From an uncultured bacterium (GTDB lineage: Bacteria > Fidelibacterota > Marinisomatia > Marinisomatales > AB-629-J13), in assembly GCA_964489755.1 (NCBI GenBank), contig CAZBBE010000001.1, positions 356 through 64,355 of the forward strand: a stretch of DNA of 64,000 bases, in the 5' to 3' direction. Below, piece after piece: positions 7,443 through 25,278 of the stretch. Numbering within the stretch: position 1 is the stretch's first letter; each line of letters opens with the position of its first letter. Made by a program: the position numbers and the translations under genes. The notes beneath the pieces were generated by a model. It saw only the letters and a program-made list of their open reading frames with translations. It did no database searches and was not told where the DNA came from.

Positions 7443-9791
7443 TTATTCGATTATAATCTCATCGGAAAAAATCCATGCCTTTCCGCCTGAGCCGGGATGC
7501 CAGTCGGGACACACTTTACGGTTTTGTGCTTGAATTCTAATATATCTACACAGTTCGCTAATACCTGAAAAATCAGCAGTTCTTCGCTCTGGTGGGGAAT
7601 CGGGGGGGGCTTCTGTTAATTGGATAATTTTCTCATTTTTAAATTGTTTGTCTTCAATAGAAAACGAGACCGCTATGTGTATCGGCAGGAATATCCATGA
7701 ACCGACAGACTCTAAAAACCCCGCAGAAATTTTTGAAATTAACGTTCGCTCCCCAAGATCAAGAATCACGTCCATATCGTCACCCTCCCAGCCCTGCCAG
7801 TATCCATCATTATAGTGTGCTGTACCAATCAGCCCATCCACAAGGTTTATTTGTCCCTTTCCTGAATATTTTCGCTTATGTGGAACCAAATATTCAACAG
7901 GTTTTCCTACGGCCTTGTGAAAATAAAATGTCTTTTCAGAAATTTTTCCTGACTGTTTTCCATCTATGAAAAGGGCGGCCTTTACCGGGGTTGTTTTTTT
8001 AATAGAAATTGTATGTTGAAACCTTGGAGAGGAAATAGAGGGATCTGTTCCGTCCACTGTAAAATGAATGGGGTTTCCTGGTTTTTCAGAAGAAAGGTCA
8101 ATCTTGAACGTTGATCTGTCTGTTTTGGGGCTGGCCTGAATTGAAACGATGAATGACCCCGGTGCGTAGGTCCAATCCAAAACATCAAACCGTTCTTGAA
8201 GTTTAATAAGCCTTCCATAAAAGTCGTCATAATCCCGAAAATTCTTTGGAGACCAAACAACTTCAGCTAGTGCGGTCATCCGAGGAAGAGTGCGATATTG
8301 TGCTCTTTCGTTGGTTTTCACATATTCTGTCCACAGGTTTCCCTGTGCACCTAAAATGTGTTCTGATTCCTCCTCGTTCAGTTCTTCTGGGACAGGATTA
8401 AAGGAATACACTTTTTTTAATGTTGTGAAGCCACCGATGGCTTCCGGGGAGGTTTCGGGGTCTGCCTGATAATAATCAAAATAACAATGTGATGTAGGGC
8501 ACATAATGACATCGTGCCCCTGTCTGGCTGATTCTACACCACCCTTTGTCCCTCTCCAGCTCATGACAGTAGCTTCGTCTGCCAGTCCACCCTCTAATAT
8601 TTCATCCCAGCCCACCAATTTTTTATTCTTTGAAACAAGAAACTTCTCGATCTTTTGAATAAACCAGCTCTGAAGCTCCTGTTCGTCCTTTAGGTCTTCT
8701 TTCCTTATTCTATTTTGACATTTTTGACATTTCTTCCAGTTGGTTTTATCTGCCTCATCGCCGCCAATGTGAATGTATGGTCCCGGGAATAACTCAACAA
8801 CCTCTGATAAAACATTTTCTATAAATGCGAAAACCTCATCATTTCCAGCACAAAATATGTCCACATTGGGCCAGTAGGACCCAGGAACAACATCTAGCGT
8901 GTCGCCCTTACATGAAAGTTCAGGATAGGCGGCAAACACTTCGGATGTATGTCCCGGCATTTCTATTTCCGGAATTACCGTAATATAACGATCGTCAGCA
9001 TATTGGATGACCTCCTTAACCTCATCTTTTGTATAAAACCCGCCATAACTTGCTTTTTCATTAGCCTGAACAGGGGACCATTCCTTCCAGTTTTCGTGTT
9101 CTCTGTCCACCCTCCAGGCAGACTTTTCGGTGAGTTCCGGGTAGCGGTCAATTTCAATTCGCCAGCCGTTGTCATCAGTCAAGTGCCAGTGAAAAACATT
9201 CATTTTATGAATGGCTATCATATCAAGATAGGTTTTAATAAACTCCACGTCAAAAAAATGGCGGGATACATCTAAGTGCATCCCTCTATATCCGAACCGA
9301 GGATAGTCTTCAATCTCAACACATGGAATAGTGGGGCTTTGGGGCTCAATTCCTTTCTCCAGTTCTGGCGGTAATAGTTGGCGCAAAGATTGAAATCCAT
9401 AAAATAATCCTGCGGCTGATGGGGCCTCAATTAAAATCCTTTTTGAGAAAATTGAAAGATTGTACCCTTCCTTATTTTCACTGACTTTAGAATTTATGTT
9501 CAATTCAATTCGCCCTTTTCCTTTTTGAATGTTGGGTGCTATTTCTATATCGATAGCGGGGGAGAGTAGGGTTTTAATTTCGTCTGCTATAAAACGTGTT
9601 TCTGGTGTATCCGGGTGGATAAGGATATGACTAAATGTTTGAAGCGTGACACTGTCTTTAGGTATTTTCACTGACACTGGTTTTGGGATTAGTGAGGTGG
9701 TTGTTTCAGTGTTTTGGGAGCACTCTTTAATCACAGTAAAACATCCCATAAATACAACACACAAAGGAAGGCTGTAATAAAAAAATTTCAA
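7443..9791 (-). CDS. beta-N-acetylhexosaminidase (GH20) with a C-terminal discoidin/F5-F8-type-C-like domain
   Basis: GH20 core motifs RGMHLDVSRHF, HWHLTDDNGWRIEI, IPEIEMPGH, IHIGGDE, W. The C-terminal region, about 150 aa (…RYIRIQAQN…AWIFSDEIIIE), looks like a carbohydrate-binding discoidin domain. The N-terminus has a signal/lipobox-like VFMGC. Confidence 0.88.
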   Translation of the reverse strand: MKFFYYSLPLCVVFMGCFTVIKECSQNTETTTSLIPKPVSVKIPKDSVTLQTFSHILIHPDTPETRFIADEIKTLLSPAIDIEIAPNIQKGKGRIELNINSKVSENKEGYNLSIFSKRILIEAPSAAGLFYGFQSLRQLLPPELEKGIEPQSPTIPCVEIEDYPRFGYRGMHLDVSRHFFDVEFIKTYLDMIAIHKMNVFHWHLTDDNGWRIEIDRYPELTEKSAWRVDREHENWKEWSPVQANEKASYGGFYTKDEVKEVIQYADDRYITVIPEIEMPGHTSEVFAAYPELSCKGDTLDVVPGSYWPNVDIFCAGNDEVFAFIENVLSEVVELFPGPYIHIGGDEADKTNWKKCQKCQNRIRKEDLKDEQELQSWFIQKIEKFLVSKNKKLVGWDEILEGGLADEATVMSWRGTKGGVESARQGHDVIMCPTSHCYFDYYQADPETSPEAIGGFTTLKKVYSFNPVPEELNEEESEHILGAQGNLWTEYVKTNERAQYRTLPRMTALAEVVWSPKNFRDYDDFYGRLIKLQERFDVLDWTYAPGSFIVSIQASPKTDRSTFKIDLSSEKPGNPIHFTVDGTDPSISSPRFQHTISIKKTTPVKAALFIDGKQSGKISEKTFYFHKAVGKPVEYLVPHKRKYSGKGQINLVDGLIGTAHYNDGYWQGWEGDDMDVILDLGERTLISKISAGFLESVGSWIFLPIHIAVSFSIEDKQFKNEKIIQLTEAPPDSPPERRTADFSGISELCRYIRIQAQNRKVCPDWHPGSGGKAWIFSDEIIIE

Positions 9792-9797
9792 ATAAAA

Positions 9798-10760
9798 TCA
9801 GTTTGTATATATGCTCTTAACCCATTTTATGTCACTGTCTGATACCGGTTTTCCAAGGGACGAAGCGACCTCAACCTGGCCTATGTTCCGCTGCCCAAGA
9901 AGTACACAACTGTTTTTTGAATCGGAAACGAGTGTGTCAATCACGCCATGCATTACCGGATTTGGGTGGTCTTTAAATTTTTCCCTTAATTGTTCCGCGT
10001 TCTTCTGAAAAAGGTTAATGACTGACTCGTCCTTAAAGGCGCCTACGTTTTTCCTGAAGTCCCCTTCAGAAAATTCAGCAGGCTGGGAATATTTTCCGGT
10101 CAACAAGCCGTGCATAAGGGGCGAAAAATAACAAACACCTAAGTTGTGTGTTTCAATGTAATCTTTTAATCCGCTTGATGAATATGTGTCCTCATAAATG
10201 TTGCGATAGGGCTGAACCACGTCGGGATCTGCTCTTTCAATAAAATTCATAATCTTGTTTAAGTCCCAATCAGACAATCCGGTAAATTTAGTTTTACCCT
10301 CTTCTTGAAATCGGTTAAGGGTGTTTGCCGCATCATCAAAATATTCCTCATTATTTCCAAAATTACAGTGATGAAAATACATAAGATCCACACAGTCTGT
10401 TTTCAGGCTGACTAAGGACCGCTCCATTTTTTGTCTCATGTGTGCGGGGTGATACCAACAAGAGTGGGGGCCTTGGTCCCACCCAACTTTCGTAGCAAGA
10501 AAAATTTCATCCCGGGGGACAGTTTCCCACATGGAGCCAATCACGGATTCTGACCGGCCATCTCCGTAAACATCTGCCGTGTCCCAATGGTTTATCCCAA
10601 GTTCCCAGGCCCTAACTAGCGCCCTTCGGGAGTCTTTGTTTTCCTGTCCCGCCCAACCAACAGACCTGCCGCTTGACACATTTGCCCCACCATAAGACCA
10701 AGTTCCCAGGCTTACAGACGATACAGACACTTTTGTTCTTCCCAGTAAAACCTGTCTCAT
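9798..10760 (-). CDS. aldo/keto reductase family oxidoreductase
   Basis: LGTWSYGG, HWDTADVYGDG, …ATKVG…, and a C-terminal LLGQRNIGQVE pattern typical of the AKR family. It starts 18 nt downstream of the ArsC-like gene. Confidence 0.85.
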   Translation of the reverse strand: MRQVLLGRTKVSVSSVSLGTWSYGGANVSSGRSVGWAGQENKDSRRALVRAWELGINHWDTADVYGDGRSESVIGSMWETVPRDEIFLATKVGWDQGPHSCWYHPAHMRQKMERSLVSLKTDCVDLMYFHHCNFGNNEEYFDDAANTLNRFQEEGKTKFTGLSDWDLNKIMNFIERADPDVVQPYRNIYEDTYSSSGLKDYIETHNLGVCYFSPLMHGLLTGKYSQPAEFSEGDFRKNVGAFKDESVINLFQKNAEQLREKFKDHPNPVMHGVIDTLVSDSKNSCVLLGQRNIGQVEVASSLGKPVSDSDIKWVKSIYTN

Positions 10761-10778
10761 TATTTTACCCTTTTAAAA

Positions 10779-11129
10779 TCAGTCTATTAATGTTAATACA
10801 TTCTCGGGTGGGCGCCCTAAAACGGCTCGATCTCCCTTAATCGCGATCGGCCTTTCTATAATTTTTGGATAGTGTGACATGGCTTCAAACAAGACCTGTA
10901 TATCCTCTAATTTGTCGGTTAACCCTTGCTCTTTAAAGTCCGCTTCTCGGGTTCTAATAAACTCTTTTGGATGTAAACCCAGTTTTTTAGATAAACTTTG
11001 TAAATCTGAAACTGAGGGCGGGGTTTTTAAATATTCAATTATTTGAAGTTCAACACCCTGGTCTTTTAGAAGCTGCACGGCTTCTCTGCTTTTACCTCAC
11101 CTGGGGTTGTGGTAAACGGTGATTTCCAA
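10779..11129 (-). CDS. ArsC-family (glutaredoxin-type arsenate reductase-like) protein with in-frame UGA at the catalytic Cys position; probable selenoprotein
   Basis: The ORF track reports only 10779..11078. The same frame continues upstream: SD AGGAG (11136..11140), TTG 11129..11127, then MEITVYHNPR-UGA(11099..11097)-GKSREAVQLLKDQGVELQIIEYLKTPPS… This matches the R773 ArsC motif ITIYHNPACGTSR with UGA in place of Cys12. Downstream Arg counterparts are present (RTRE, IERP, LGRP). Confidence 0.7.
11068..11085 (-). promoter_or_regulatory. SECIS-like hairpin 11 nt downstream of the in-frame UGA
   Basis: The minus-strand RNA reads UGA-GGUAAAAGCAG-[AGAAGC-CGUGCA-GCUUCU]-AAAAGACC. It has a 6-bp perfect stem and a 6-nt loop containing GU about 19-20 nt after the UGA. 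GGU right after the UGA can pair with the ACC 5 nt past the hairpin, forming a lower helix. Folded by eye only. Confidence 0.45.
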
Positions 11130-11361
11130 TTATTTCTCCTGTTTAAATTGTTTTCAAAAACAACATGTTAAAATATAAATTAAAAACTATACGGACTATG
11201 AAATGAAATTGGATTTTTCCATTTAGAATAATACGTGCATGCTATTAGCTGTACTAATTACTACATTTTATGAAACATGTTGCAAGCAGAGGGGGCTCGG
11301 TTGGTTCATTGAGTGGTTCCACCGAAGAAGGTGGGGTCTCAGAAACAGAAGATTTGACAGA

Positions 11362-12015
11362 CTAAACAAACACACATGCTTCAGAAAGTAGTTTTTTCCT
11401 AAGTACGGGAACCTTTGCTTCTTTATTCGGATAGCCCACCGGGATCAATAAAAATGCCCGTTCGTTTTTTGGGCGCTTAAGTATTTTTTCAAGAAACCCC
11501 ATAGGGCTGGGTGTGTGAGTTAATACAACCAATCCTATTTGATGAAGCGCCATTAATAAAAAACCTGCTGCAATACCAACGGATTCATTCACGTAATAGT
11601 TTTTTTTCTTGGATTTTGCTTCAAATTCATAAATTTGTTTAAATACCACAATGAGGCAGGGAGCCATTTCAAGAAACGGTTTGTGCCAATCAGTTTCAAA
11701 GGGATTTAAGTCTTCCAGCCATTCACGGGTGGCACGGTGGGTATAAAATTCTTTTTCTTCTTTTTCAGCGGCAATGCGAATTTTCTTTTTGGTTTTTTTA
11801 TCCGTCACTATTGCAAATGTCCATGGTTCCTTATTTGCGCCAGATGGAGCAGAAACAGCAATCCGTACTGCATTCTCAATTGCTTCTAATGGAATCGCTT
11901 CATTTGAAAAATCTCTCACTGTCCTTCTGTTTTTCATTTTGTTCAGTAAGAGCTGTGACGTACTTATTAATTCGAATTTATCTTTTTTTATAAAGTGTAA
12001 TTTTTGGAATGGCAT
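11362..12015 (-). CDS. nitroreductase-superfamily flavoprotein, iodotyrosine deiodinase (IYD)-like
   Basis: RRTVRDFSNEAIPLEAIENAVRIAVSAPSGANKEPWTFAIV, then EKEEKEFYTHRATREWLEDLNPFETDWHKPFLEMAPCLIVVFKQ, and a C-terminus LLIPVGYPNKEAKVPVLRKK. It is collinear with animal IYD (…EEEINYMKR…W..[15 protein letters not shown]..FKQ … LLPVGYP..EA.VP.L.RK). Confidence 0.75.
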   Translation of the reverse strand: MPFQKLHFIKKDKFELISTSQLLLNKMKNRRTVRDFSNEAIPLEAIENAVRIAVSAPSGANKEPWTFAIVTDKKTKKKIRIAAEKEEKEFYTHRATREWLEDLNPFETDWHKPFLEMAPCLIVVFKQIYEFEAKSKKKNYYVNESVGIAAGFLLMALHQIGLVVLTHTPSPMGFLEKILKRPKNERAFLLIPVGYPNKEAKVPVLRKKLLSEACVFV

Positions 12016-13426
12016 GGTTCTCCCTTATGGTTTAATTTTGCCGATATTTTTTATCAACTTAACTATTATGCGATTATTAGAAATTATGTTTTTGGGTTCT
12101 CTGTTGTGGGCAATTTATCTTTTATTTTGGAAAGATAAAAAATTGTTTCTTTACTCATTGGTCGGTTCATTAGTATTCTGCCTTTTTCATTTTATTCTGG
12201 AGTCATACCGTTGGCAAATGGTTCCTGCATATCTTCTGTTTATAATCCTTTTTATCCTTTTTAAGAGTCGGGTACGTACATCTCTCTTGTTAAAATCTTT
12301 TCTCTTTATTTTGCTGTTACTGTCCATTCTCCTTCCAGTTGTGGCCCCTGTTTTTTCGTTACCATCACCAACCGGTCCCCACTCAATTGGAACACAAATA
12401 TTTCAGTGGACAGACTCTACCAGGCTGGAATGGTTCACAGAAGAAAATCTCGGCGACTATAGAAAAGTGTTGGTTCAGGTGTGGTATCCATCTCAAAAAC
12501 CAGAAAAAGAGAAACCCGAGCCCTACATTGACCATATAGATATCCGAGCTAAAACCATTGGTAATGCTGGGGGTTTCCCGGGAGAATTAATTAGCCACAT
12601 CAATCTTGTAAAAACCCATTCTTTTTTAAATATTGATCCAGACCTTTCTCAATCGCCTTATCCTTTACTCGTTTTGTCCCACGGCATTACTGGAATGCGC
12701 CAAATTCACACAACTCTTATCGAGGAGCTTACAAGCCATGGTTATGTGGTGGTGGCCTTAGACCATCCCTATGACTGTAATCTTACTGTTTTCCAAGATG
12801 GAACAATTGCAGATTATCGATCTGATATTACCGGACATCCAGACAGTGTCAATATCAGGAGAAACCAATTAGATACTAGGGTTGCTGATGTTGGTTTTGT
12901 TTTGGATAAATTAACAGAATTAAGCACAGCTTCCGTGTTTGGAGGGATGATGAATCTGAATAAAGTTGGTGTGTTGGGTCATTCCTATGGTGGGGCAACT
13001 GCTGTTCAGGTTTCTTATGAAGATGACCGGTTTAGCTCGTGTCTAGTTTTAGATAGCTGGATGAACCCGTTGCCAAACAATATTATAAAATCAGGAACAC
13101 ACCATCCTTTTCTTTATTTAGGTCGCCCGCATTGGGGGGATTCGGATTATCCTTCCAGCCCTGAACTGGTGAAATTATTTATGAATACGTTTTCAGAACA
13201 CAATTACCATTTTATTTTAAAGGGGTCGCGCCATCTCGATTTCTGTGATGCTCCGCTTTTTACTCCCCTGTCAAGCTGGTTTGTTGAAACTGGATCAATC
13301 CCAGCGAAAAAAGCAATTTCCGTTACAAACAGTATCGTTCTTTCATTTTTTGATCATTTCATGAAAGAAAAATTGAATGAATTCCCCAATAATCTTTTAA
13401 GTGAACCTTATATTATTTTTCGTTGA
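12014..13426 (+). CDS. alpha/beta hydrolase, platelet-activating-factor acetylhydrolase (PAF-AH, plasma/isoform II)-like lipase with an N-terminal multi-TM domain
   Basis: The ORF-track frame 11774..13426 runs antisense through the IYD-like gene; the plausible starts are ATG 12014 or ATG 12068. About 5 TM helices are followed by PLLVLSHGITGMRQIHTTLIEELTSHGYVVVALDHP and the nucleophile elbow GHSYGGATA, as in Pfam PAF-AH_p_II. Confidence 0.7.
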   Translation: MVLPYGLILPIFFINLTIMRLLEIMFLGSLLWAIYLLFWKDKKLFLYSLVGSLVFCLFHFILESYRWQMVPAYLLFIILFILFKSRVRTSLLLKSFLFILLLLSILLPVVAPVFSLPSPTGPHSIGTQIFQWTDSTRLEWFTEENLGDYRKVLVQVWYPSQKPEKEKPEPYIDHIDIRAKTIGNAGGFPGELISHINLVKTHSFLNIDPDLSQSPYPLLVLSHGITGMRQIHTTLIEELTSHGYVVVALDHPYDCNLTVFQDGTIADYRSDITGHPDSVNIRRNQLDTRVADVGFVLDKLTELSTASVFGGMMNLNKVGVLGHSYGGATAVQVSYEDDRFSSCLVLDSWMNPLPNNIIKSGTHHPFLYLGRPHWGDSDYPSSPELVKLFMNTFSEHNYHFILKGSRHLDFCDAPLFTPLSSWFVETGSIPAKKAISVTNSIVLSFFDHFMKEKLNEFPNNLLSEPYIIFR

Positions 13427-13798: not shown

Positions 13799-15091
13799 GT
13801 GACACCAAACTTGTCCAAAATTACCGCAATTGTCGGTGCACAGTGGGGTGACGAAGGCAAAGGAAAGGTCACTGATTTTTTTGCCGGGGAATCCGACTAC
13901 GTTGTAAGGTTTCATGGCGGTAATAATGCCGGCCACACTGTTGTTGTTAACGGAAACACCTACAAGCTGCACCTAATCCCCTCCGGCGTTATTTATGGAA
14001 AACCAATCAGTGTTATTGGTAATGGTGTTGTAGTTGATCCCAAGGTGCTGTTGGATGAAATTGATTACATAATAAAAAAGGGGGTAGAACCCAAACTGAT
14101 GGTAAGTGACCGCGCTCATGTTATCATGCCTTATCATATTGCCCTGGATGAAGCATTATCAAATCACCAGGGAAAGCTCGCCGCAGGAAGCACCAAGCGA
14201 GGAATTGCTCCTGTTTATGCAGACAAAATGTTCCGAAATGGAATCCGGTTAATCGATTTACTGGAGCCTGACGTTTTCAGGGAGAAACTTGAAAATGGTT
14301 ATGGGTTTTCCAAGAGCCTTATTGAAAAATCGCTGGGGCATAAACTGGGAATACCAAAGGAAGAAATATTTTACACTTATTCCGGTTATGGCCAGCAGCT
14401 AAAGGAATATGTCGCAGATACAGCTGTGGAATTGTACAACGCACATAGATCAGGTAAATCCATTTTATTCGAAGGCGCCCAAGGTATCAGCCTGGACGTT
14501 GACCACGGCGTTTATCCTTACACCACGTCCAGCAATACAGCTGCCGGGCATATTTCCACTGGGACCGGTGTCAGTTTTCGGGATATTAATCGAATTATTG
14601 GAGTTGTAAAGGCTTATTTAAGCCGTGTAGGAGAAGGCCCTCTTCCGTCTGAAATGTATGGAGATGCTGCGGTCTCTCTTCGAGAAAAGGGCCATGAATA
14701 TGGAACCACAACCGGTCGCCCACGTCGTATGGGTTGGTTAGATCTTGTCCAGGTTCGCCAAGCGGTACGCGTTAACGGACTTACTGAAATTGCCCTGACA
14801 AAATTGGACGTCCTAAACGGGTTCGAAAAGCTTTCTGTCTGTGTTGCTTATGGTGTGAACAATGAACATATCACTGAAATGCCTGCCAGTCTTACGTTGT
14901 ACCGTAAAGCCAAACCAATTTATAAAACATTGCCCGGTTGGGGTGATTTGCCTGAAAATATATGGGATAAGGGCTACGACGAGCTTCCCCAAAACTTAAA
15001 AGATTATATTGATTTTATAGAAGGTGAGGTCTGTTGTCCCGTGAAAATCGTTTCCGTGGGGCCCCAGCGCCACGAGACCATAATTCGTTAG
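13799..15091 (+). CDS. purA: adenylosuccinate synthase
   Basis: GAQWGDEGKGK P-loop, GGNNAGHT, TTKRGIGP-like STKRGIAP, GTTTGRPRR. The start is uncertain (GTG 13799 or TTG 13811). Confidence 0.95.
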   Translation: MTPNLSKITAIVGAQWGDEGKGKVTDFFAGESDYVVRFHGGNNAGHTVVVNGNTYKLHLIPSGVIYGKPISVIGNGVVVDPKVLLDEIDYIIKKGVEPKLMVSDRAHVIMPYHIALDEALSNHQGKLAAGSTKRGIAPVYADKMFRNGIRLIDLLEPDVFREKLENGYGFSKSLIEKSLGHKLGIPKEEIFYTYSGYGQQLKEYVADTAVELYNAHRSGKSILFEGAQGISLDVDHGVYPYTTSSNTAAGHISTGTGVSFRDINRIIGVVKAYLSRVGEGPLPSEMYGDAAVSLREKGHEYGTTTGRPRRMGWLDLVQVRQAVRVNGLTEIALTKLDVLNGFEKLSVCVAYGVNNEHITEMPASLTLYRKAKPIYKTLPGWGDLPENIWDKGYDELPQNLKDYIDFIEGEVCCPVKIVSVGPQRHETIIR

Positions 15092-15174
15092 AAGAGGTCT
15101 CGTGTGTTTAGGTGTTCAAAAAAATGTAGATCAAGTTTTAACATCTAAAAACTTTCGCAACTAAATACATAAAA

Positions 15175-17511
15175 ATGGCATTCACGAAAGAAATTGTTGA
15201 CTTCTCCAGGCTTTCCAACACTGACATTAAGGCCAAGTTGAATGAGCTCAATATTCCGCTAACCGTAGATGAGGCACGCAAAATTCAAAATAATATGCTA
15301 GGCCGTGCTCCGTCCTTGTCAGAATTAATCCTTTTTTCAATCCAAGGTTCAGAGCATTCCAGCTATAAAAGCAGCCGATCACATTTAAAGCAGTTTACCA
15401 CCACTGGTCCCGATGTGGTTCTGGGCGCCGAGGAGGATGCTGGTGTGGTTGCCGTGGCCACAGATATTGATGGAAGTCGTTGGTGCATCGTTATGAGCCA
15501 TGAGTCTCATAATCATCCCTCCCAAATAGTCCCTTATGAAGGTGCTGCCACCGGCGTAGGTGGGAATGTGAGAGATGTAATGTGCATGGGTGCCGAGGTG
15601 ATCGCCTGTACTGATTCATTCCGCTTTGGGGAAATCAATAACAATAAAACCAAGTGGATTCATGACGGCGTGGTGGCAGGTATCGCTGGATATGGTAACC
15701 CCTTGGGTGTTCCCAATATTGGTGGGGATATTTATTATCACAAAGGCTATAACGAAAACTGCCTGGTAACATTGGTAACGCTGGGTATTGTGAAAGAGGA
15801 CCAAATTATCCATTCTTATGCTCCAAAAAATGCAGATGGGTATGATCTTATTCTAATCGGAAAACCTACGGACAACAGTGGTTTTGGCGGCGCCAGCTTT
15901 GCCTCCCTGGAATTGGAAGAAGAAAAAAAAGAGCAAAACAAAGGAGCAGTCCAGGAGCCCAACGCCTTCCTAGAAAGGCATTTACTCAAATCTACTTATG
16001 CCTTGTTTGACATCCTGAAAGAAAAAGGACTGATCGACAATATCGGTTTCAAAGATCTTGGTGCTGGAGGTGTGGCCTGTGCCAGTGTGGAGCTGGCGGA
16101 AACAGCAGGTTATGGATCTGAGGTCTGGTTGGACAGGGTCCACATCGGTATGGATAATTTACACCCTTCTGTTTATCTCTGTAGTGAGACTCAGGAAAGA
16201 TTTATGTGGGTTGCGCCACCGGAAGTAACGCCAATGATTGTAAACCATTATAATAATGTGTTCGATCTGCCCGGCGTAAGCGCTGGTGCCTGCGCTTCTG
16301 TTATTGGAAAAATCAGAAACGACGGCCAATACATTGTTCATAACGGAAATGATGAGATTGTAAATGCCCCGGCGGAAGAAGTAACAGAAGGTTTTTTATA
16401 TAATCGTCCATTTGAACCAGGGAATAAAATATTTACTGAACCAGTCTTGCCGGAGCCGGTAGATTATAATAAAACATTATTGGATATTATTTCCCATGAA
16501 AACATGGCCAGCCGTGGGCCGGTGTTTGAACAGTATGATAAACAGGTCCAGGGGCGGACATACACGGAAACAGGGTTGGCGGATGCCGGGGTTATGGCTC
16601 CGTTTAATTCTGAAAAATATCCGGAAGAAATTCGAAATATTGGCATTGCTCTTTCTACCGATCATAACCCTATGTATGGACTTATCAGTCCTTATTGGGG
16701 TGGAATAAACGCTGTGGTAGAGGCCATGCGCAATGTGGCTGCCGTGGGAGCAACACCCCATGCTATTACTGACTGTTTGTGTTTCGGTAACCCAGAAAAA
16801 CCTCAGCAGATGTGGGAATTTGTAGAAAGTGTTCGCGGTGTGTCTGACGCTTGCCACGCTATCACACTGAAAGAGTATCCAGATGAGGCCACGCCCATCA
16901 TCGCCGGGAATGTGAGTTTTTATAATGAATCCAAAACTGGTGCAATCCCGCCAAGCCCTATTATCAGCTGCCTTGGTAGGCTCAAGGATGTAAACAAAAC
17001 TGTACCAATGCATTTTCAAAAGACCAATTCTGTTTTGCTTATGGTGGGTGAGCGAAAAGATGAATTGGGAGGCAGTATCTATTACAGTCTGCATAGCGAG
17101 CTGGGTGCCCATGTACCGAAGCCCGAACTGGACGAGGTGAAGAAACAAATCTTTGCATTAACCGATTGCATTGATGGTGGACTTGTGCTTTCTTGCCATG
17201 ATATTGCCGATGGTGGAGTTGCTGCGGCTATTGCTGAAATGACATTTGGAAACGGGATTGGCTGTGAGGCTAACGTTTTTGGTGATTATTCAGTGGATAA
17301 ATTATTATTTTCCGAATCTGGAGGATTTGTTCTGGAAGTTTTACAGAAAAATGTAAATCCCCTTAAAAGCGTGTTTGCAACATATGAATTAAAAACTGAT
17401 GTGATTGGCAGCACAACAGTACATAGGGTTATAGAAATAAACGGTGTCGTCCATTTATCCACCGGGAGAGTGAAAGAAATGTGGATGCGTGGATTGTGGG
17501 AAAAACTATAA
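15175..17511 (+). CDS. purL: phosphoribosylformylglycinamidine synthase subunit PurL (small PurL / FGAM synthase II)
   Basis: 778 aa. SEHSSYKSS, DAGVV, HESHNHPS, GAATGVGG, two PurM-like repeats, DCLCFGNPE. Confidence 0.95.
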   Translation: MAFTKEIVDFSRLSNTDIKAKLNELNIPLTVDEARKIQNNMLGRAPSLSELILFSIQGSEHSSYKSSRSHLKQFTTTGPDVVLGAEEDAGVVAVATDIDGSRWCIVMSHESHNHPSQIVPYEGAATGVGGNVRDVMCMGAEVIACTDSFRFGEINNNKTKWIHDGVVAGIAGYGNPLGVPNIGGDIYYHKGYNENCLVTLVTLGIVKEDQIIHSYAPKNADGYDLILIGKPTDNSGFGGASFASLELEEEKKEQNKGAVQEPNAFLERHLLKSTYALFDILKEKGLIDNIGFKDLGAGGVACASVELAETAGYGSEVWLDRVHIGMDNLHPSVYLCSETQERFMWVAPPEVTPMIVNHYNNVFDLPGVSAGACASVIGKIRNDGQYIVHNGNDEIVNAPAEEVTEGFLYNRPFEPGNKIFTEPVLPEPVDYNKTLLDIISHENMASRGPVFEQYDKQVQGRTYTETGLADAGVMAPFNSEKYPEEIRNIGIALSTDHNPMYGLISPYWGGINAVVEAMRNVAAVGATPHAITDCLCFGNPEKPQQMWEFVESVRGVSDACHAITLKEYPDEATPIIAGNVSFYNESKTGAIPPSPIISCLGRLKDVNKTVPMHFQKTNSVLLMVGERKDELGGSIYYSLHSELGAHVPKPELDEVKKQIFALTDCIDGGLVLSCHDIADGGVAAAIAEMTFGNGIGCEANVFGDYSVDKLLFSESGGFVLEVLQKNVNPLKSVFATYELKTDVIGSTTVHRVIEINGVVHLSTGRVKEMWMRGLWEKL

Positions 17512-18548
17512 TGGGAAAGATTGATTATAAATCAGCTGGTGTAGATATTGATGCAGGAAACGAGGTGGTAGATCGCATTAAACATAGGGTGCGGTCCACT
17601 TTTTCATCTAATGTGTTGACAGGTCTCGGAAGCTTTGGTTCGCTCTATGATCTTAAACCGGTACTAGAAACCTATAATAATCCGGTCATGGTGCAAAGTG
17701 TTGATGGTGTGGGAACCAAAACCATTATCGCAAGAAAATTGGGGAAATTTGATACAATTGGGTTTGATCTGTTGAGTGCCTGTGCCAACGATATTCTGGT
17801 TATGGGTGCCCGGCCCCTCACTTTTCTCGATTACATCGCAAACGATAAACTGAAACCAGAAATTGTTGAAGAGATTGTATCAGGCATGGTGATAGCTTGC
17901 AAAGAAACCGGAGTATCGCTTGTTGGTGGTGAAACAGCGGAAATGCCTGATACTTATCTTCCAGGAGAACATGATATAGTGGGTGTCATTACAGGTGTTG
18001 TGGAAAAGGACAAAATTGTCACCGGTGAATCCATCAAGCCCGGAGATGTGGTTCTGGGTTTGCCATCCAGCGGACTGCACACCAACGGTTACTCTCTTGC
18101 CCGTAAAATTTTCTTTGAAATCAACAGCTATGGTGTAAACGATACTATCCCGGGATTGGATAAATCGGTTGGGCTCACATTGCTGGAACCACATATTAAT
18201 TATACAAATCCTGTGTTTGCTGTTTTGGATGTAGGTATTGATGTAAGGGGAATTGTCCATATTACCGGCGGCGGTTTATTGGAAAACATTCCCAGAGTTT
18301 TACCTTGTGGTGTTGGTGTTGAAATCCAAAAAGGGTCTTGGCCTTCGCTTCCAGTGTGTGAAGTGATGCAGTCCATTGGTAACGTGGATGAAGAAGAAAT
18401 GTACCGCGCATTCAATATGGGCATCGGGATGGTGTTTATTGTTAATTCTTCTGATGTGAGTGCGGTAAAAAGTGCAATGAAATATTTGACTGAAGTTTAT
18501 GAAATTGGGGTGGTAGTAGGCAGTGATGGGGAAGTAATAATAAAATGA
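17511..18548 (+). CDS. purM: phosphoribosylformylglycinamidine cyclo-ligase (AIR synthase)
   Basis: MGKIDYKSAGVDIDAGN…, DGVGTK, GGETAEMP, HITGGG. ATG 17511 overlaps the purL stop (TAATG). The ORF-track start at 17481 lies inside purL. Confidence 0.95.
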   Translation: MGKIDYKSAGVDIDAGNEVVDRIKHRVRSTFSSNVLTGLGSFGSLYDLKPVLETYNNPVMVQSVDGVGTKTIIARKLGKFDTIGFDLLSACANDILVMGARPLTFLDYIANDKLKPEIVEEIVSGMVIACKETGVSLVGGETAEMPDTYLPGEHDIVGVITGVVEKDKIVTGESIKPGDVVLGLPSSGLHTNGYSLARKIFFEINSYGVNDTIPGLDKSVGLTLLEPHINYTNPVFAVLDVGIDVRGIVHITGGGLLENIPRVLPCGVGVEIQKGSWPSLPVCEVMQSIGNVDEEEMYRAFNMGIGMVFIVNSSDVSAVKSAMKYLTEVYEIGVVVGSDGEVIIK

Positions 18549-19804
18549 GTGCAAACATTGCAGTAATCCAATTCCCCGGTTCCAATACTGAACGGGAAAC
18601 TCTTATGGCATGCTACCGTGTGGGGTTAAGTCCCGTAGAATTTTTGTGGAACAAACCAACGGAAAAGCTCTCAGACTTTAACGGTTATGTGATCATTGGG
18701 GGATTTTCTTACGAAGACCGATCCCGAGCCGGTGTCATTGCGGCACTAGATCCTATCATGAAACAGATACGCTTGGAAGCAGAAAAAGGGAAACCGGTTT
18801 TGGGTATTTGTAACGGTGCACAAATTTTGGTGGAAAGCGGGCTTGTCCCGGGATTGGAAGACCACAGGCTGAGCATGGCTCTCACGGATAATAAGCGGGT
18901 GCAGGGTGGACATGTGGTAGGAGTTGGGTATTATAATGCTTGGTCCAACCTACAGATGTCAGCACCATCCAGCCGGTGTGCTTTCACTCGCCATTTAAAA
19001 ACCGGGGAGCGGATTAACGTCCCCCTGGCTCATGGAGAAGGGCGGTTTGTTATTCCTGATGGGTTACTATCACAAATGATAAATAATGATCAAACAGTTT
19101 TTATTTACTGCAATGATGATGGAAATATCATAGATGAATTTCCCACTAATCCCAATGGTTCTGTGTACAATTTGGCAGCAGTTTGTAATTCCTCTGGAAA
19201 CGTCATGGCTATAATGCCCCACCCTGAACGGACAGAAGGCGGTGACGTTATTTTTTCTTCCATGAAAGAATTTATCGAACAGGGAAATCCTATTACTGAT
19301 CATACGCTAATGTTTGATCGTCCCCATTATGAAGTGACTAATTACAAACCCAATGGGGATTCCACAGGGTGGGTCATCGACATGATTATTACGGATAATG
19401 AAGCGGCATCGGTTCATAATGCCCTGGGGCGCATGGGCTACAGCGTCAACGTCACACGGCAAGTCCATTGGGAAATTGAAACGAACGGAGATCGAGAATT
19501 TATTCTGCAAAAAATTAACGAAAGCGGAGAATTATACAATTCCAACAAGGAATTCCTCAGCAACATCACAGCAAAAGAAAACACCGCATCTTTCCTGGTG
19601 CGCCAAAAAGAAGATATGATCGGCCGAGCTAAGCTTGAATCCCTAACCGAGCGTTTCGAAATTAATGGAATTTCCAAACTTAAGCGTGGTGTCATATGGA
19701 ATATAACTGTGAATAGCAGTAATATTGACACTGTCATGAAAGCTATATTGAACACTCACATACTATTTAACCCACTCTCTCATGAATGTTATCGAATTAA
19801 CTGA
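18545..19804 (+). CDS. purQ: FGAM synthase glutaminase subunit PurQ fused to two tandem PurS-like domains
   Basis: aa 1-235 are PurQ (IAVIQFPGSNTERE, nucleophile GICNGAQIL, HGEGRF, MPHPER). aa ~275-337 and ~348-419 each align by eye to about 80-aa PurS (SVHNALGRMGY…VTRQVHWEIE…ELYNSNKEF and GRAKLESLTERF…KRGVIWNITV…ILFNPLSHECYRI, versus B. subtilis PurS AVQHALHSMTY…VRIGKYMELTIE…LLANTVIEDYRYEV). Confidence 0.85.
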   Translation: MSANIAVIQFPGSNTERETLMACYRVGLSPVEFLWNKPTEKLSDFNGYVIIGGFSYEDRSRAGVIAALDPIMKQIRLEAEKGKPVLGICNGAQILVESGLVPGLEDHRLSMALTDNKRVQGGHVVGVGYYNAWSNLQMSAPSSRCAFTRHLKTGERINVPLAHGEGRFVIPDGLLSQMINNDQTVFIYCNDDGNIIDEFPTNPNGSVYNLAAVCNSSGNVMAIMPHPERTEGGDVIFSSMKEFIEQGNPITDHTLMFDRPHYEVTNYKPNGDSTGWVIDMIITDNEAASVHNALGRMGYSVNVTRQVHWEIETNGDREFILQKINESGELYNSNKEFLSNITAKENTASFLVRQKEDMIGRAKLESLTERFEINGISKLKRGVIWNITVNSSNIDTVMKAILNTHILFNPLSHECYRIN

Positions 19805-20768
19805 ACACTATACAGACCGAATCAAGGCGGGGTTGGGCAACACGTTAACTGAAACTGCTTTGCCTTACGGAGAAAAGCTGACCGGGAAGGTTCGAGACCA
19901 ATATGATTTGGGAGACAAAATAGCGCTCATTACCACGGATCGCCAGAGCGCTTTTGACCGGGTTCTTGCATCAATCCCATTTAAGGGGCAGGTTCTGAAT
20001 CAGACTAGCGCCTGGTGGTTCGAACAGACTAAAAATATTATTCAGAACCATGTTATTGATGTTACTGACCCTAATGTAACACTTGCAAAAAAATGTGACG
20101 TTTTTCCCATTGAGTTTGTGGTCCGGGGCTACATCACAGGCAGTACCAGTACAGCTTTGTGGACTGTCTATAATAATGGAGATAGAGAATATTGCGGGAA
20201 CATCCTTCCAGAAGGGTTAGTGAAAAATCAAAAGCTGGATACCACCATGCTCACCCCTACCACTAAGAATGAAACACATGACCACCCCATCGCACCGGAT
20301 GAAATTACAAATAAGGGTTGGATGACCCGGGAAGACTGGAACTTTTGCAGCAAAAAAGCTCTGGAACTTTTTTCTTTCGGGCAAAAAAAGGCAGCCGAGC
20401 ACGGGTTGGTTCTTGTGGACACAAAATATGAAATGGGTAGGGACCCGGATGGTAATATCATTCTCATTGATGAAATCCATACTCCGGATTCCAGCCGTTA
20501 CTGGATCGCTAAAACATACAAAGAGCGCATGGCCGCAGGACATGAACCTCAAAATATTGACAAGGAATTCTTACGGCTGTGGTTTGTGGACAACTGTGAT
20601 CCGTACAATGACACAACGCTGCCGGAAGCACCGGTAGAGTTGGTGATCAAACTTTCCAGCCGTTATATTTATTTATATGAAACCATTACCGGCAATCAGT
20701 TTTTATTTCACGATTCAGAAAAATCTGTTCAGGAAAGAATTAACAAAAACATGAAGGGTTATTTATGA
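19782..20768 (+). CDS. purC: phosphoribosylaminoimidazole-succinocarboxamide (SAICAR) synthase, long form
   Basis: GKVRDQYDLGDKIALITTDRQSAFDRVL, EFVVRGYITGS, LVDTKYEMG, IDEIHTPDSSRYW. 328 aa (Ade1-like long type). 23-nt overlap with purQ. Confidence 0.93.
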   Translation: MNVIELTEHYTDRIKAGLGNTLTETALPYGEKLTGKVRDQYDLGDKIALITTDRQSAFDRVLASIPFKGQVLNQTSAWWFEQTKNIIQNHVIDVTDPNVTLAKKCDVFPIEFVVRGYITGSTSTALWTVYNNGDREYCGNILPEGLVKNQKLDTTMLTPTTKNETHDHPIAPDEITNKGWMTREDWNFCSKKALELFSFGQKKAAEHGLVLVDTKYEMGRDPDGNIILIDEIHTPDSSRYWIAKTYKERMAAGHEPQNIDKEFLRLWFVDNCDPYNDTTLPEAPVELVIKLSSRYIYLYETITGNQFLFHDSEKSVQERINKNMKGYL

Positions 20769-21151
20769 AAACTGTAATTATTATGGGCTCAAAATCAGAC
20801 CACCCTCACGCAAAAAAAATTACTAACAAGTTAGATGAATACGGCGTTGCCTGGGAACAGCACACCGCATCCGCTCACAAGCAACCCTTGAAAGTTCTGG
20901 ACATCCTAAATGACAACAAAGATAGTAAAAACATTGTCTATATCACCATCGCTGGCCGATCCAATGCCCTGTCTGGATTTGTTGCGGCCAACTGTGAATT
21001 CCCAACGATTGGGTGCCCACCTTTTGCAGACAAAACAGACCTGTTGGTAAATATTCATTCTACGCTGCAAATGCCCAGTAATACACCGGTACTCACAGTC
21101 ATTGATCCTGAAAACTGCGCATTAGCTGTTAAGAGAATGCTCGGTGCGTAG
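20765..21151 (+). CDS. purE: 5-(carboxyamino)imidazole ribonucleotide enzyme PurE with class II (AIR carboxylase, PAICS-like) loop signatures
   Basis: IIMGSKSD, SAHKQP (class I has SAHRTP), IAGRSNALSGFVAANCEFPTIGCPP (class I has AGGAAHLPG…VIGVPV; human PAICS has [24 protein letters not shown]). Short, 128 aa. Confidence 0.85.
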   Translation: MKTVIIMGSKSDHPHAKKITNKLDEYGVAWEQHTASAHKQPLKVLDILNDNKDSKNIVYITIAGRSNALSGFVAANCEFPTIGCPPFADKTDLLVNIHSTLQMPSNTPVLTVIDPENCALAVKRMLGA

Positions 21152-22493
21152 TCCATTAAATAACATTACCCCATTGGATGGCCGTTACTCAAGTAGCGTA
21201 AGGGGATTAACTGCCTTTTTTTCTGAATCAGCGCTCATGCGCTATCGCCTGAAAGTAGAAATTGAATATCTTATCGCGCTGGGTAACGAAAAACGAGTTC
21301 AAGAGTTAGCGCCTTTTTCGAACAAAGAGCAGGTGCGCCTTAAAAAAATCTACAAGAACTTTAATTCGGCCGACGCTGAAAACGTGAAAGAGATTGAGTT
21401 AACAACAAATCATGATGTGAAAGCCATTGAGTATTATATCCAAAGCAAAGTGAAAAAAGCATTACATCCGTGGATTCATTTTGCGCTCACCTCAGAAGAT
21501 GTGAACAATCTTTCATATTCACTCATGTGGCGGGATGGACTAAGACAGGTTTACATGAGGTCCCTTCAAAATGTAAATAAAGAATTAAAGAAACTGGCCC
21601 GGAAGTATAAAAATTCGTCCATGCTTGCTTTGACGCATGGCCAGCCCGCAACTCCAACCACGCTTGGAAAAGAATTAGCTGTTTTCTGCCATCGGCTTGA
21701 CCGCCAAATTGACCAGATGGGGTCACATATATTATTGGGGAAATTTGGCGGTGCGACAGGTACTTGGTCTGCTCATATGGTTGCTTATCCAAAAGTAAAT
21801 TGGATGCGTTTTGTAGAAAAATTTATTAAAGCACTTGGTCTTAAACCTAACCTTATCACATCACAAATTGAACCTCACGATTCCGCTGTTGAAAGCTATC
21901 ATCAGGTTATTCGTGTGAATTCTATATTGATGGACCTTTGCCAAGATATGTGGTTTTACATCAGTCGTGATGTTCTTGGGCAAAAGAAAAAGGAGGGAGA
22001 GGTGGGCTCATCCACTATGCCCCATAAAATCAACCCAATTCAGTTTGAAAATGCGGAGGGGAATCTGGGTGTGGCAAATTCATTGTTAAACCATCTTTCT
22101 GCCAAGCTTCCAATTTCTAGACTGCAGCGAGACTTGACTGACAGCACCACGGTTCGCAACCAGGGGGTTGCCTTGGGGCACAGCACTTTAGCGCTGAAAA
22201 ATATTTTGAATGGTCTTAGTCGCATCTCCATTAATAAATCTCAATTATCAGCCGAACTGAATCAACACTGGGAAGTATTGGCGGAGGCAGTTCAGACCGT
22301 TCTCCGAAAAACTGGAAAGCAGGATGCATATGAGGGAGTGAAGACGCTAACTCAAGGTCAGAAGGTTGATTCTGATTCAATAAAACAATTTGTGTCCCAA
22401 TTAACAATTAACGATAACGATAAACAGACGTTGCTTAAGCTGACACCGGCCGACTACACCGGGCTTGCCCCAAGACTCGTGGAGATGATCTAA
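21144..22493 (+). CDS. purB: adenylosuccinate lyase
   Basis: PLDGRYSS…, HFALTSEDVNN, THGQPATPTTLGKE, GSSTMPHKINP signature. GTG start overlapping the purE end. Confidence 0.95.
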   Translation: MRSPLNNITPLDGRYSSSVRGLTAFFSESALMRYRLKVEIEYLIALGNEKRVQELAPFSNKEQVRLKKIYKNFNSADAENVKEIELTTNHDVKAIEYYIQSKVKKALHPWIHFALTSEDVNNLSYSLMWRDGLRQVYMRSLQNVNKELKKLARKYKNSSMLALTHGQPATPTTLGKELAVFCHRLDRQIDQMGSHILLGKFGGATGTWSAHMVAYPKVNWMRFVEKFIKALGLKPNLITSQIEPHDSAVESYHQVIRVNSILMDLCQDMWFYISRDVLGQKKKEGEVGSSTMPHKINPIQFENAEGNLGVANSLLNHLSAKLPISRLQRDLTDSTTVRNQGVALGHSTLALKNILNGLSRISINKSQLSAELNQHWEVLAEAVQTVLRKTGKQDAYEGVKTLTQGQKVDSDSIKQFVSQLTINDNDKQTLLKLTPADYTGLAPRLVEMI

Positions 22494-23974
22494 TGTGTGG
22501 TGTTGTTGGTATCTTATCTACAAAAAAGCAGATAGCGGGAGAACTTTATGAGAGTCTCATTCACCTTCAACATCGTGGGCAAGATGCAGCCGGAATTATG
22601 ACTTACAATGAACGGTTCCACGTAAAGAAGGGTACTGGACTTGTCCGTGACGTTTTTGATGAACAAAACATGGCACGTCTTCAGGGAAAAATTGGAATTG
22701 GGCACACTCGATATCCTACCGTAGGAGGTTTCAGTATTGAAGAAGCCCAACCGGTTCTGACAAGTGTGCCTTACGGAATCGCAATGGCACACAATGGTAA
22801 CTTAGTGAATTATTCCGAATTGGCTCGGGAGGTGTCTCAAGAAAATCATCGCCATATAAATTCATCTGTGGATATTGAGGTCATCCTTCATGTTTTTGGT
22901 CATGCCCTAGATCATCCTGTAGGTAATACTGCTGAGCTTTCTTTCTTTGATCAAATTTGCCAAGGCGTAGAAGCTGTGTTTAATCGCGTGAGTGGAGCTT
23001 ATTCTGTTGTTGGTATTATTATGAATAAGGGGATGGTTGTTTTTAGAGACCCGCACGGTATTCGTCCTCTAACAAAGGGAATAAGGAAAAACGAAGATGG
23101 TTCAATTGATTATATTTTCGCTTCCGAGACTACTATGTTTTACACTTTAGGGTTTGAACCGTCTGGAAACGTATTGCCGGGAGAGGTTATTTATATCGAT
23201 GAAAGCGGTGCCTATAACAGAAAAATTATCCTAAAAGAAAAGTTCACTCCCTGTATCTTTGAGTATGTTTATTTCTCCCGTCCTGATTCTATACAAAATG
23301 AAGTGAGCGTATACCGGTCTCGTTTACGTATGGGGCAAAATCTTGCCCGCCGGTGGCAGAAACAATACCCAAAAATTGTCCCAGATATTGTCATCCCTGC
23401 CCCCTCTACTGCCAACACCGCTGCTTTAAGTTTTGCTAATGAGCTTGGTGTTCGCTATTCCGAGGGTTTATATAAAAACCCGTTCATAGGAAGAACTTTT
23501 ATCATGCCTGGACAGGAAAATCGGAAGCGGTCTGTGCGCTACAAGCTTGTACCACAGGAATTCGAGATACGTAACAAAAATGTTTTAATTGTTGACGATA
23601 GTATTGTTCGAGGAAACACAAGTAGAGAGATTGTAAGGATGATAAGGGAGTTTGGGGCAAGAAAAGTGTATTTCGTATCTGCCTGTCCTCCAGTGAAATA
23701 TCCGTGCTATTACGGTGTTGATATGCCAACAAGGGAAGAGCTGGCTGCTGCCCAAAGTACAACCGAAGAAATTCAGAATCAGATGGGGGTGGATATCCTT
23801 ATGTATCAGAAAATTGAAGATTTAGTGGAGGCGGTGACACGGAAGGGGGAACACAATATAAATCGTCCCTGCATGGCGTGTTTGGATGGCTGGTATGTAA
23901 CCGGAGATGTTAATGAGAAAAAAATAGACAGTCTGGAGAAACAACGAAAAAGGGAAAGATCTCATTTAATATGA
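22493..23974 (+). CDS. purF: amidophosphoribosyltransferase
   Basis: MCGVVGI (N-terminal Cys nucleophile), HRGQDAAGI, HTRYPT, AHNGNL, PRT motif VLIVDDSIVRGNT. Confidence 0.95.
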   Translation: MCGVVGILSTKKQIAGELYESLIHLQHRGQDAAGIMTYNERFHVKKGTGLVRDVFDEQNMARLQGKIGIGHTRYPTVGGFSIEEAQPVLTSVPYGIAMAHNGNLVNYSELAREVSQENHRHINSSVDIEVILHVFGHALDHPVGNTAELSFFDQICQGVEAVFNRVSGAYSVVGIIMNKGMVVFRDPHGIRPLTKGIRKNEDGSIDYIFASETTMFYTLGFEPSGNVLPGEVIYIDESGAYNRKIILKEKFTPCIFEYVYFSRPDSIQNEVSVYRSRLRMGQNLARRWQKQYPKIVPDIVIPAPSTANTAALSFANELGVRYSEGLYKNPFIGRTFIMPGQENRKRSVRYKLVPQEFEIRNKNVLIVDDSIVRGNTSREIVRMIREFGARKVYFVSACPPVKYPCYYGVDMPTREELAAAQSTTEEIQNQMGVDILMYQKIEDLVEAVTRKGEHNINRPCMACLDGWYVTGDVNEKKIDSLEKQRKRERSHLI

Positions 23975-25278
23975 ATATTTTATTAATCGGGTCTGGGGCA
24001 AGAGAACATGCTATTGCAAGAGCATTGGAACGATCACCTAAAAAAAAAAGAATAAACTGCCTTGCGTCCAGTGTGAACCCCGGGCTGATTAAGCTCTGCT
24101 CTGAAATTAAAATTGGAAATATAAACGACCCAAAATCTGTCTCTCGCTACGCTAAAGAACATAGTATAAGATTGGCTATTATTGGTCCTGAAAATCCACT
24201 GGCCAATGGTGTCGCTGATGCCCTTTGGGATGAAGGGGTAAAGGTGGTCGGTCCTAAAAAAGAACTGGCCCAAATCGAAACATCTAAGTCCTTTACTCGT
24301 GATCTGCTTGTTGAATACAAAATCCCTGGTTGTCCAAATTATCGAACATTTTCATCCATGAATGGTGTTGTCAGCTTCTTAAATGAATTGGGTGAAAATT
24401 ATGTAGTAAAATATGATGGTCTAGCCGGTGGAAAGGGTGTGAGAGTGGCTGGTGATCATCTTCATTCACAAGACGATGCGCTGTCCTATTGCCAGAAGCT
24501 TATAAGTCGGGGTGATGAATTTGTCATTGAAGAAAAGCTTTTCGGACAGGAGTTCTCCCTTATGAGTTTTTGTGATGGGAGCACTCTAAAACATATGCCA
24601 GCAGTACAAGACCATAAACGAGCCTACGAAGGTGACACTGGTCCAAACACAGGCGGTATGGGAACCTATTCTGATACCAATCATTCTCTTCCTTTTTTAA
24701 ATGATAACGACATTGCCAAGGCCCGCGATATTAACACCTCAACAGTGAGAGCATTAAAAGATAAGTTTGGTGCAGGGTATAAGGGTGTTCTTTACGGCGG
24801 GTTTATAGCCACAGCCAAAGGGATAAAGCTCATTGAATATAATGCTCGGTTCGGCGACCCGGAAGCAATGAACGTTTTGCCGTTGCTTGAATCAGACTTT
24901 GTTGAAATATGCAATGGTGTTGCCAGTGGGACGCTAGAAAATGTTGATGTAAAATTCCAACACAAAGCGACGGTCTGTAAATATGCCGTGCCAGAAGGGT
25001 ATCCCGACCGTCCAACGAAAGGTAGCCCCATTGATGTGTCCAGCATTGAAAATCCAGATAGTCTTTTTTATGCATCTGTAGACATTCAAAACGGTCAACT
25101 GGTGGAAGCTGGAAGCCGCACTGTAGCTGTAGTGGGCATAGCGGACTCTATTTCTGAAGCAGAAGTCATCGCTGAAAAAGAAATATCATCCGTGACCGGT
25201 CCACTCTTTCACCGTACCGATATTGGCACAGATAAGGTCGTTCAGAAGCGCGTTGACCATATGAATTCTTTGAGATGA
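23971..25278 (+). CDS. purD: phosphoribosylamine--glycine ligase
   Basis: MNILLIGSGAREHAIA, GPENPL, ATP-grasp core VVKYDGLAGGKGV, EYNARFGDPE. Confidence 0.95.
   Translation: MNILLIGSGAREHAIARALERSPKKKRINCLASSVNPGLIKLCSEIKIGNINDPKSVSRYAKEHSIRLAIIGPENPLANGVADALWDEGVKVVGPKKELAQIETSKSFTRDLLVEYKIPGCPNYRTFSSMNGVVSFLNELGENYVVKYDGLAGGKGVRVAGDHLHSQDDALSYCQKLISRGDEFVIEEKLFGQEFSLMSFCDGSTLKHMPAVQDHKRAYEGDTGPNTGGMGTYSDTNHSLPFLNDNDIAKARDINTSTVRALKDKFGAGYKGVLYGGFIATAKGIKLIEYNARFGDPEAMNVLPLLESDFVEICNGVASGTLENVDVKFQHKATVCKYAVPEGYPDRPTKGSPIDVSSIENPDSLFYASVDIQNGQLVEAGSRTVAVVGIADSISEAEVIAEKEISSVTGPLFHRTDIGTDKVVQKRVDHMNSLR

Follow-up and report, generated by a model that had tools for sequence, protein, structure and literature searches.

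Zhang, Fomenko & Gladyshev (2005, PMC1088965) described from Sargasso Sea sequences a new selenoprotein family, an arsenate reductase in which selenocysteine (Sec, U) opens a UxxS motif; their account comprised 14 sequences and a figure of the selenocysteine insertion sequence (SECIS) element. The family is defined as 'Arsenate reductase (ArsC) 1', pfam03960 with UxxS, in Table 3 of that article and in the table of Zhang & Gladyshev (2008, PMC2398784), the two surveys giving 14 and 77 sequences, respectively, and a 2026 review lists the UxxS arsenate reductase under TIGR00014 (PMC13188914). The present work deals with a gene that resembles this family, located in a stretch of 64,000 nucleotides (the window) from contig CAZBBE010000001.1 of an uncultured bacterium (GenBank assembly GCA_964489755.1). 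We are highly confident that positions 10779-11129 of its minus strand hold a genuine Sec-containing ArsC-type arsenate reductase gene, hereafter Sec-arsC, which gene callers have cut short at an in-frame UGA.

The window gene shares with 'Arsenate reductase (ArsC) 1' the same Pfam and TIGRFAM assignment, a UxxS motif (here U-G-K-S) at the Cys12 position and a marine-metagenome habitat, as well as a SECIS-like hairpin located directly 3' of the UGA with a G in its small apical loop. No essential difference was found between the two; the gene fits the family in every respect that could be tested, and the family is not new. A first-pass annotation of the window had pointed out that marine-metagenome surveys include ArsC-like selenoproteins, and the literature confirms it (PMC1088965, PMC2398784, PMC13188914). 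What the window gene adds is a host lineage and a visible genomic context, in which a nitroreductase gene, arsC(U) and an aldo/keto reductase (AKR) gene stand together without an ars operon.

Direct reading of the minus strand, to which all coordinates of the gene refer, returned exactly the positions that the first-pass annotation had given for the ribosome-binding site, the start codon, the UGA and the hairpin. A Shine-Dalgarno-like AGGAG (11136-11140), present as AGGAG or AGGAGG at the equivalent place in 16 related loci, is separated by 6 nucleotides (AAATAA) from a TTG start codon (11127-11129). Because an in-frame TAA sits immediately before it, this TTG is the sole possible start 5' of the UGA. 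The nine codons that follow (11100-11126; GAA ATC ACC GTT TAC CAC AAC CCC AGG) specify the residues E I T V Y H N P R, which make up the first β-strand and open the active-site loop, and are overlooked by gene callers. Next comes the in-frame TGA (11097-11099), read here as Sec from its alignment to the ArsC structure 1i9d, after which the frame continues with GGT AAA AGC AGA GAA GCC GTG CAG CTT CTA. The SECIS-type hairpin (11068-11085), recognised by its fold, covariation and spacing, lies 11 nucleotides beyond the UGA and comprises a 5' arm AGAAGC (11085-11080), a loop CGUGCA (11079-11074) whose G and U are nucleotides 11078 and 11077, and a 3' arm GCUUCU (11073-11068), giving a stem of 6 base pairs and a loop of 6 nucleotides. 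The full-length coding sequence (10779-11129) would yield a read-through product of 116 residues including U, M/L-EITVYHNPR-U-GKSREAVQLL...LTLID, followed by a TGA stop (10781-10779). At this locus the mechanical list of open reading frames (ORFs) contains only a 99-residue ORF with a GTG start (10779-11078), which is also what public gene calls give in place of the full gene; the identical 99-residue product occurs on at least 24 contigs, which differ in sample and assembler, and the suspicion that the gene is annotated as a shortened protein was thus well founded.

For all profile and structure searches with the 116-residue product, U was replaced by C. The product matches the arsC equivalog model TIGR00014 of NCBIfam with 127.4 bits (cut-off 106.05), covering profile positions 1-113 of 114, and Pfam ArsC (PF03960) with an E-value of 1.7e-15 and 57.5 bits (cut-off 24). 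In the PDB the top match is the ArsC of Vibrio (3f0i, E = 5.6e-28, residues 1-114), further matches being Yersinia 3rdw and the ArsC of plasmid R773 (1i9d and 1jzw, E = 4e-17). The N-terminal alignment to 1i9d contains no gaps and is offset by one: the nine N-terminal codons pair with residues 3-11 of R773 ArsC and residue 11 (U) pairs with Cys12, and likewise with a Cys in both 3f0i and 3rdw. This alignment, together with the 16 related loci and the wider family set, upholds the earlier proposal that the UGA occupies the Cys12 position behind ten conserved residues. The arsenate-binding Arg triad is kept as well, with R59, R93 and R106 equivalent to Arg60, Arg94 and Arg107 and lying in the contexts fiR59, ieR93pi and lgR106ppe (llR60, inR94pi and lcR107pse in 1i9d); inspection by eye indicates that ERP and GRP are kept in most family translations. 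As judged from the sequence, the ArsC active site is complete save that the codon of its nucleophile is UGA.

The window gene thus belongs to the fold family of R773/E. coli ArsC (1i9d, 1jzw; Vibrio 3f0i, Yersinia 3rdw), sharing the YHNPxC/U-xxSR loop and the Arg triad. It differs from R773 ArsC in having a Sec instead of a Cys nucleophile, in its length (116 against 141 residues, a length like that of the Vibrio and Yersinia forms) and in the lack of an arsRBC operon. 'Arsenate reductase 2', a UxxC family related to Spx and ArsC, also falls within the ArsC/Spx superfamily and has Sec in its N-terminal redox motif, whereas the window motif is UxxS and not UxxC. This family (cd03032/NF041106) was ruled out: the fourth residue of the motif is Ser, the Spx/MgsR-type model TIGR01617 gives 50.9 bits, under its cut-off of 75.05, and NF041106, the arsenate reductase 2/ArsC-like model, does not match the product.

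The closest relatives retain the UGA together with everything around it. In a protein search, relatives of exactly 99 residues made up about 45 clusters, with 70-97% identity and all from marine metagenomes; among the matches listed, all relatives with at least 70% identity are such shortened forms and none has Cys, full-length Cys-containing ArsC appearing only at lower identity (51-61%). One relative, with 74% identity, is found on 22 contigs. In 16 of 16 related loci fetched from independent marine assemblies the TGA, the same TTG and the same ten codons are present, along with the same hairpin, and the differences within the upstream codons are synonymous (TAC/TAT, AGG/AGA, ACC/ACT, ATC/ATA) or conservative (V/I). 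Cys forms read YHNPRCSKSR where Sec forms read YHNPR-U-GKSR.

More distant members were collected by scanning metagenome contigs for the pattern YHNPx-TGA-xKSR, which matched at least 120 stretches. Together with the earlier loci this gave at least 122 loci, representing at least 100 distinct sequences, in which an unbroken ArsC frame of at least 95 codons continues beyond the UGA. These Sec forms come from NCBI, ENA and JGI assemblies, and homologues with the conserved UGA reach down to about 40% identity. Ninety-nine distinct members have enough upstream sequence to locate a start: the nearest in-frame one lies 6-12 codons 5' of the UGA in 93 of them, and in the remaining 6 a possible start codon adjoins the UGA on its 5' side (ATG in 84 members, GTG in 8 and TTG in 7). 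A scan of contigs from genome collections for close relatives yielded only homologues with at most 55% identity, from other phyla. Five relatives with about 63% identity (P0040, P0049, P0066, P0099 and P0116; loci L029-L032) have been called with W at the Cys position, and the DNA of three of them (P0049, P0066 and P0099) has TGA at the site. Evidently these contigs were gene-called with a code in which TGA is Trp. The W at the active site is an artefact of the gene caller, since the P0040 call also overruns the true stop of its gene, reaching 132 residues.

The hairpin was examined in an alignment of 101 distinct sequences, without gaps, extending from 6 nucleotides before to 57 nucleotides after the UGA. 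RNAalifold predicted five of the six base pairs proposed in the first-pass annotation, and the expectation that the hairpin would be conserved and covary in homologues proved correct: over the six pairs and 101 sequences, the bases pair in 85.3% of the cells, whereas sliding the 3' partner by 1-3 columns leaves 30.7-52.3% paired, both partners have changed in 87 cells, and none of 500 shuffles matched the observed pairing or covariation score. Compensatory changes occur at three of the six pairs, namely G-C to A-U in 31 sequences, A-U to G-C in 16 and G-C to U-A in 40. The last of these ties the replacement of Ala by Ser to that of Leu by Ile three codons away, and such coupled replacements are hard to explain by constraints on the protein. 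At least five of the six pairs form in the common register in 73 of the 101 sequences, whose loop is N-G-U-N-N-N with the G in 72 and the U in all 73. Codon choice is also restrained in this stretch: in comparison with a homologue of 62% identity, 8 of 9 conserved residues use the same codon within the SECIS stretch, versus 19 of 61 elsewhere.

The geometry is close to that of the E. coli fdhF SECIS, as had been suggested. Counted from the U of the UGA, the hairpin spans nucleotides 15-32 with its loop G-U at 22-23, and in fdhF (formate dehydrogenase H, Sec140), measured on the E. coli sequence, the upper stem-loop spans nucleotides 15-31 with G-U at 23-24. Both are hairpins within the coding region, with an 11-nucleotide spacer after the UGA and a G-U in the apical loop; a literature search for a cited 11-nucleotide spacing in fdhF gave nothing useful. 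They differ in that the Sec-arsC stem is a perfect helix of 6 base pairs without a bulged U, has a loop of 6 nucleotides instead of 4 and lacks the extended lower stem, and the two show no sequence similarity. On the plus strand, the reverse complement of the hairpin (11068-11085), with CTGCTTTTAC after it, is the sole terminator-like site found by a consensus scan of positions 9700-12100. A terminator reading was rejected, as one such site compares with 2.8 expected from shuffles and no plus-strand gene ends there; the site is a by-product of the SECIS.

Taken on its sequence evidence, the gene very probably encodes a 116-residue glutaredoxin-type ArsC, decoded with the help of a SECIS, in which Sec replaces Cys12 as the nucleophile. 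Translation would begin at the TTG at 11129, and the hairpin 11 nucleotides past the UGA would act as a bacterial SECIS, recruiting SelB-GTP-Sec-tRNA(Sec) to the ribosome for the insertion of Sec in place of termination. The chain would then continue through the canonical ArsC fold with its Arg60/Arg94/Arg107 triad, and the selenolate would play towards arsenate the nucleophilic part that Cys12 has in R773 ArsC, with recycling via glutathione and glutaredoxin.

Four other explanations were weighed against this one. A decaying gene, its catalytic Cys codon lost to a nonsense mutation and translation from the GTG at 11078 giving no more than a 99-residue fragment devoid of nucleophile, would agree with the fact that ORF finders and all public gene calls give the 99-residue product only. 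Yet the 5' end, from the Shine-Dalgarno sequence and the start through the ten codons to the TGA, is kept with synonymous changes in the 16 loci, and at least 100 homologues down to about 40% identity carry the same arrangement; a dead 5' end would not be so preserved, and decay, which the first-pass annotation had also discounted, is extremely improbable. The likely pseudogene at locus L139 looks quite different from the window gene. There the N-terminus, UGA and SECIS are kept and the frame is lost about 17 codons after the UGA, through real decay or a sequencing frameshift, and it serves as an example of a decayed copy. A sequencing or assembly error hiding a true TGT or TGC has its prior possibility alone to recommend it, and is next to negligible given the same product on at least 24 contigs, the TGA in 16 of 16 loci and the Sec forms in assemblies from three sources; the TGA is present in dozens of independent assemblies. 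Both explanations are set aside because the UGA, the start and the flanking codons recur across the family. The UGA might instead be decoded as a standard amino acid, be it Trp or Gly under a code of type 4 or 25, a residue inserted by near-cognate read-through, or Cys delivered through the Sec pathway. Several public gene calls do have W at the homologous codon, and the Sec machinery of the host genome is one that we infer. However, 20 of the 48 window genes end in TGA, arsC itself and the neighbouring AKR gene among them, and therefore the code is not reassigned; the W call of P0040 overruns a normal stop, Trp or Gly as the nucleophile would abolish catalysis, and a covarying hairpin at SECIS spacing is a requirement of SelB-dependent decoding. 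We regard this explanation as very improbable.

The hairpin could also be something other than a SECIS: it might regulate transcription or translation, or might simply arise from the conservation of the peptide SREAVQLL. The terminator-like score of the complementary strand speaks for this, as do the loop U and several stem bases, which fall at constrained codon positions, and the unexceptional folding energy. It is nevertheless very improbable: terminator-like sites are below the shuffle expectation and none serves a plus-strand gene here, slid registers lose their pairing, synonymous sites are frozen specifically in the hairpin stretch, and coupled non-synonymous changes preserve the pairing, with GCC...CUU becoming UCC...AUU in 40 sequences and G-C becoming A-U in 31.

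Several observations nonetheless weigh against a Sec-containing, SECIS-decoded arsenate reductase. Compared with shuffled sequences, the 66-nucleotide fold gives z = 0.01, so the stability of the hairpin is not unusual and its significance rests on conservation and covariation, and an Rfam search of the window gave no family match. Twenty-eight of the 101 sequences are off the common register, and one subclade among them (MDGFTIYHNPRU) has a different, weaker stem. Neither selA, selB, selD nor a tRNA-Sec gene occurs in the 64-kb window, a tblastn search of the window and 862 kb of related loci for counterparts of SelA, SelB and SelD from E. coli found no sel genes, and sister-contig sequence past the window ends (about 6 kb beyond the left end) has none either. 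As for arsenic, a tblastn search with the ArsR and ArsB proteins of E. coli detected neither arsR nor arsB in the window or in the 862 kb of Sec-arsC loci, ACR3 not being specifically searched. Our confidence stops short of full on account of the Sec machinery of the host genome and of the biochemistry, both Se incorporation and the arsenate substrate being predicted from sequence.

Some of the off-register sequences form clearly shifted hairpins, for example AAUUCC-GUU-GGAAUU, and RNAalifold on the mixed group of 28 found no common structure. The tblastn matches to SelA, SelB and SelD were confined to a purM paralogue and to an unrelated GTPase on two false-positive loci. The AIRS-domain ORF of the window was considered as selD and rejected; it is purM, with 368 bits to TIGR00878 and 37 bits to the selD model, whose cut-off is 125. 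A tRNA gene search of the window found no tRNA genes at all, and a tRNA-Sec search of 60 related loci found none. In the literature on Sec use in Marinimicrobia/Marinisomatota, all that we found is a listing of SelD ('orphan SelD') for three SAR406 single-cell genomes (PMC5029168). Sec competence of the host genome is plausible, as we infer it. When the window was searched for further ORFs interrupted by TGA, no convincing second selenoprotein emerged, and the apparent coding gaps checked are small ordinary genes.

The neighbours of Sec-arsC lie on the same minus strand. The AKR gene (9798-10760, Pfam PF00248) begins 18 nucleotides downstream and is probably co-transcribed with it; this adjacency is restricted to the clade of the window gene, where it is kept down to 74% identity. 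A nitroreductase-family gene (11362-12015, Pfam PF00881), whose best NCBIfam match is BluB at a score far under the cut-off, lies 222 nucleotides upstream. Its orthologue is found upstream of Sec-arsC and on the same strand in 23 loci (e.g. L089, L146, L044, L121 and L060), down to 59% identity, with 66 nucleotides to 5.7 kb between its end and the Sec codon. This linkage may reflect synteny across the phylum or a functional connection. Pfam annotation of the window shows no ars genes; an ars operon context is typical of the ArsC family, though not strictly defining for it. On the basis of the nitroreductase/arsC(U)/AKR linkage, of the lack of arsR or arsB near any of more than 100 loci and of the uniform Sec in the relatives found with at least 70% identity, it may be proposed, as a rather doubtful alternative, that in SAR406/Marinimicrobia the selenol of Sec-ArsC is part of a conserved redox module and not of arsenic resistance, its substrate maybe being other than arsenate.

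Window proteins share 90% clusters with proteins named Candidatus Marinimicrobia or Neomarinimicrobiota at NCBI, and the host is a marine SAR406/Marinimicrobia bacterium. The window has a GC content of 41% and carries dnaA, dnaN, gyrB, gyrA, pyruvate dehydrogenase genes and a purine-biosynthesis cluster. As inferred from Pfam and NCBIfam domains, this cluster is near-complete and on a single strand (13799-27402, plus strand), with purA, purL, purM, purC, purE, purB, purF, purD, purN and purH; it also includes a 419-residue GATase_5 protein that is purQ-like but long. Elsewhere, rpmH (60413-60547, minus strand) is followed by a YidD-like ORF of 81 residues (60161-60406) and by yidC (58434-60158). 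The usual place of rnpA is between rpmH and yidD, and in the window no ORF of rnpA size lies there. With dnaA divergent at 60749-62110, this is probably the replication-origin region.

A further observation concerns another Sec-ArsC subclade, MDGFTIYHNPR-U-GKSRQTLQLLRDNG, which lies outside the window. In seven of its loci (L080, L149, L134, L082, L083, L097 and L103; for instance L080:80-1286, L149:8827-10066 and L134:2-9316) the Sec-arsC frame is broken just after codon ~27 (...CTGTTGCGTGACAAYGGT), immediately past the SECIS. The break is followed by a tyrosine-integrase gene and then by a primase-helicase gene (Zn-ribbon DnaG, Toprim, AAA_25), L097 additionally having a c4-2 antisense RNA. 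Locus L134 contains the 5' part of arsC twice, in direct orientation and about 9.3 kb apart. Beside the junction are paired short direct repeats, with ATCAAGGAATTTGCC after them. This looks like an integrative element of about 9 kb whose attachment site is the 5' end of the selenoprotein gene (start, UGA and SECIS) and which brings a replacement copy with it.

General knowledge of selenoproteins is unchanged by the Sec-arsC gene. Its value for annotation is more direct: every public call examined is wrong, being either a 99-residue protein without its nucleophile or a protein with W at the active site, and mis-annotation of the Sec-ArsC family in the protein collection is systematic, affecting many entries from marine metagenomes. 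The gene also provides an unusually clean case of a coding-region SECIS shaping the evolution of a protein, in which base pairing links Ala/Ser replacements to Leu/Ile replacements. Finally, it gives a named host lineage, SAR406/Marinimicrobia, to part of a selenoprotein family known from anonymous reads.

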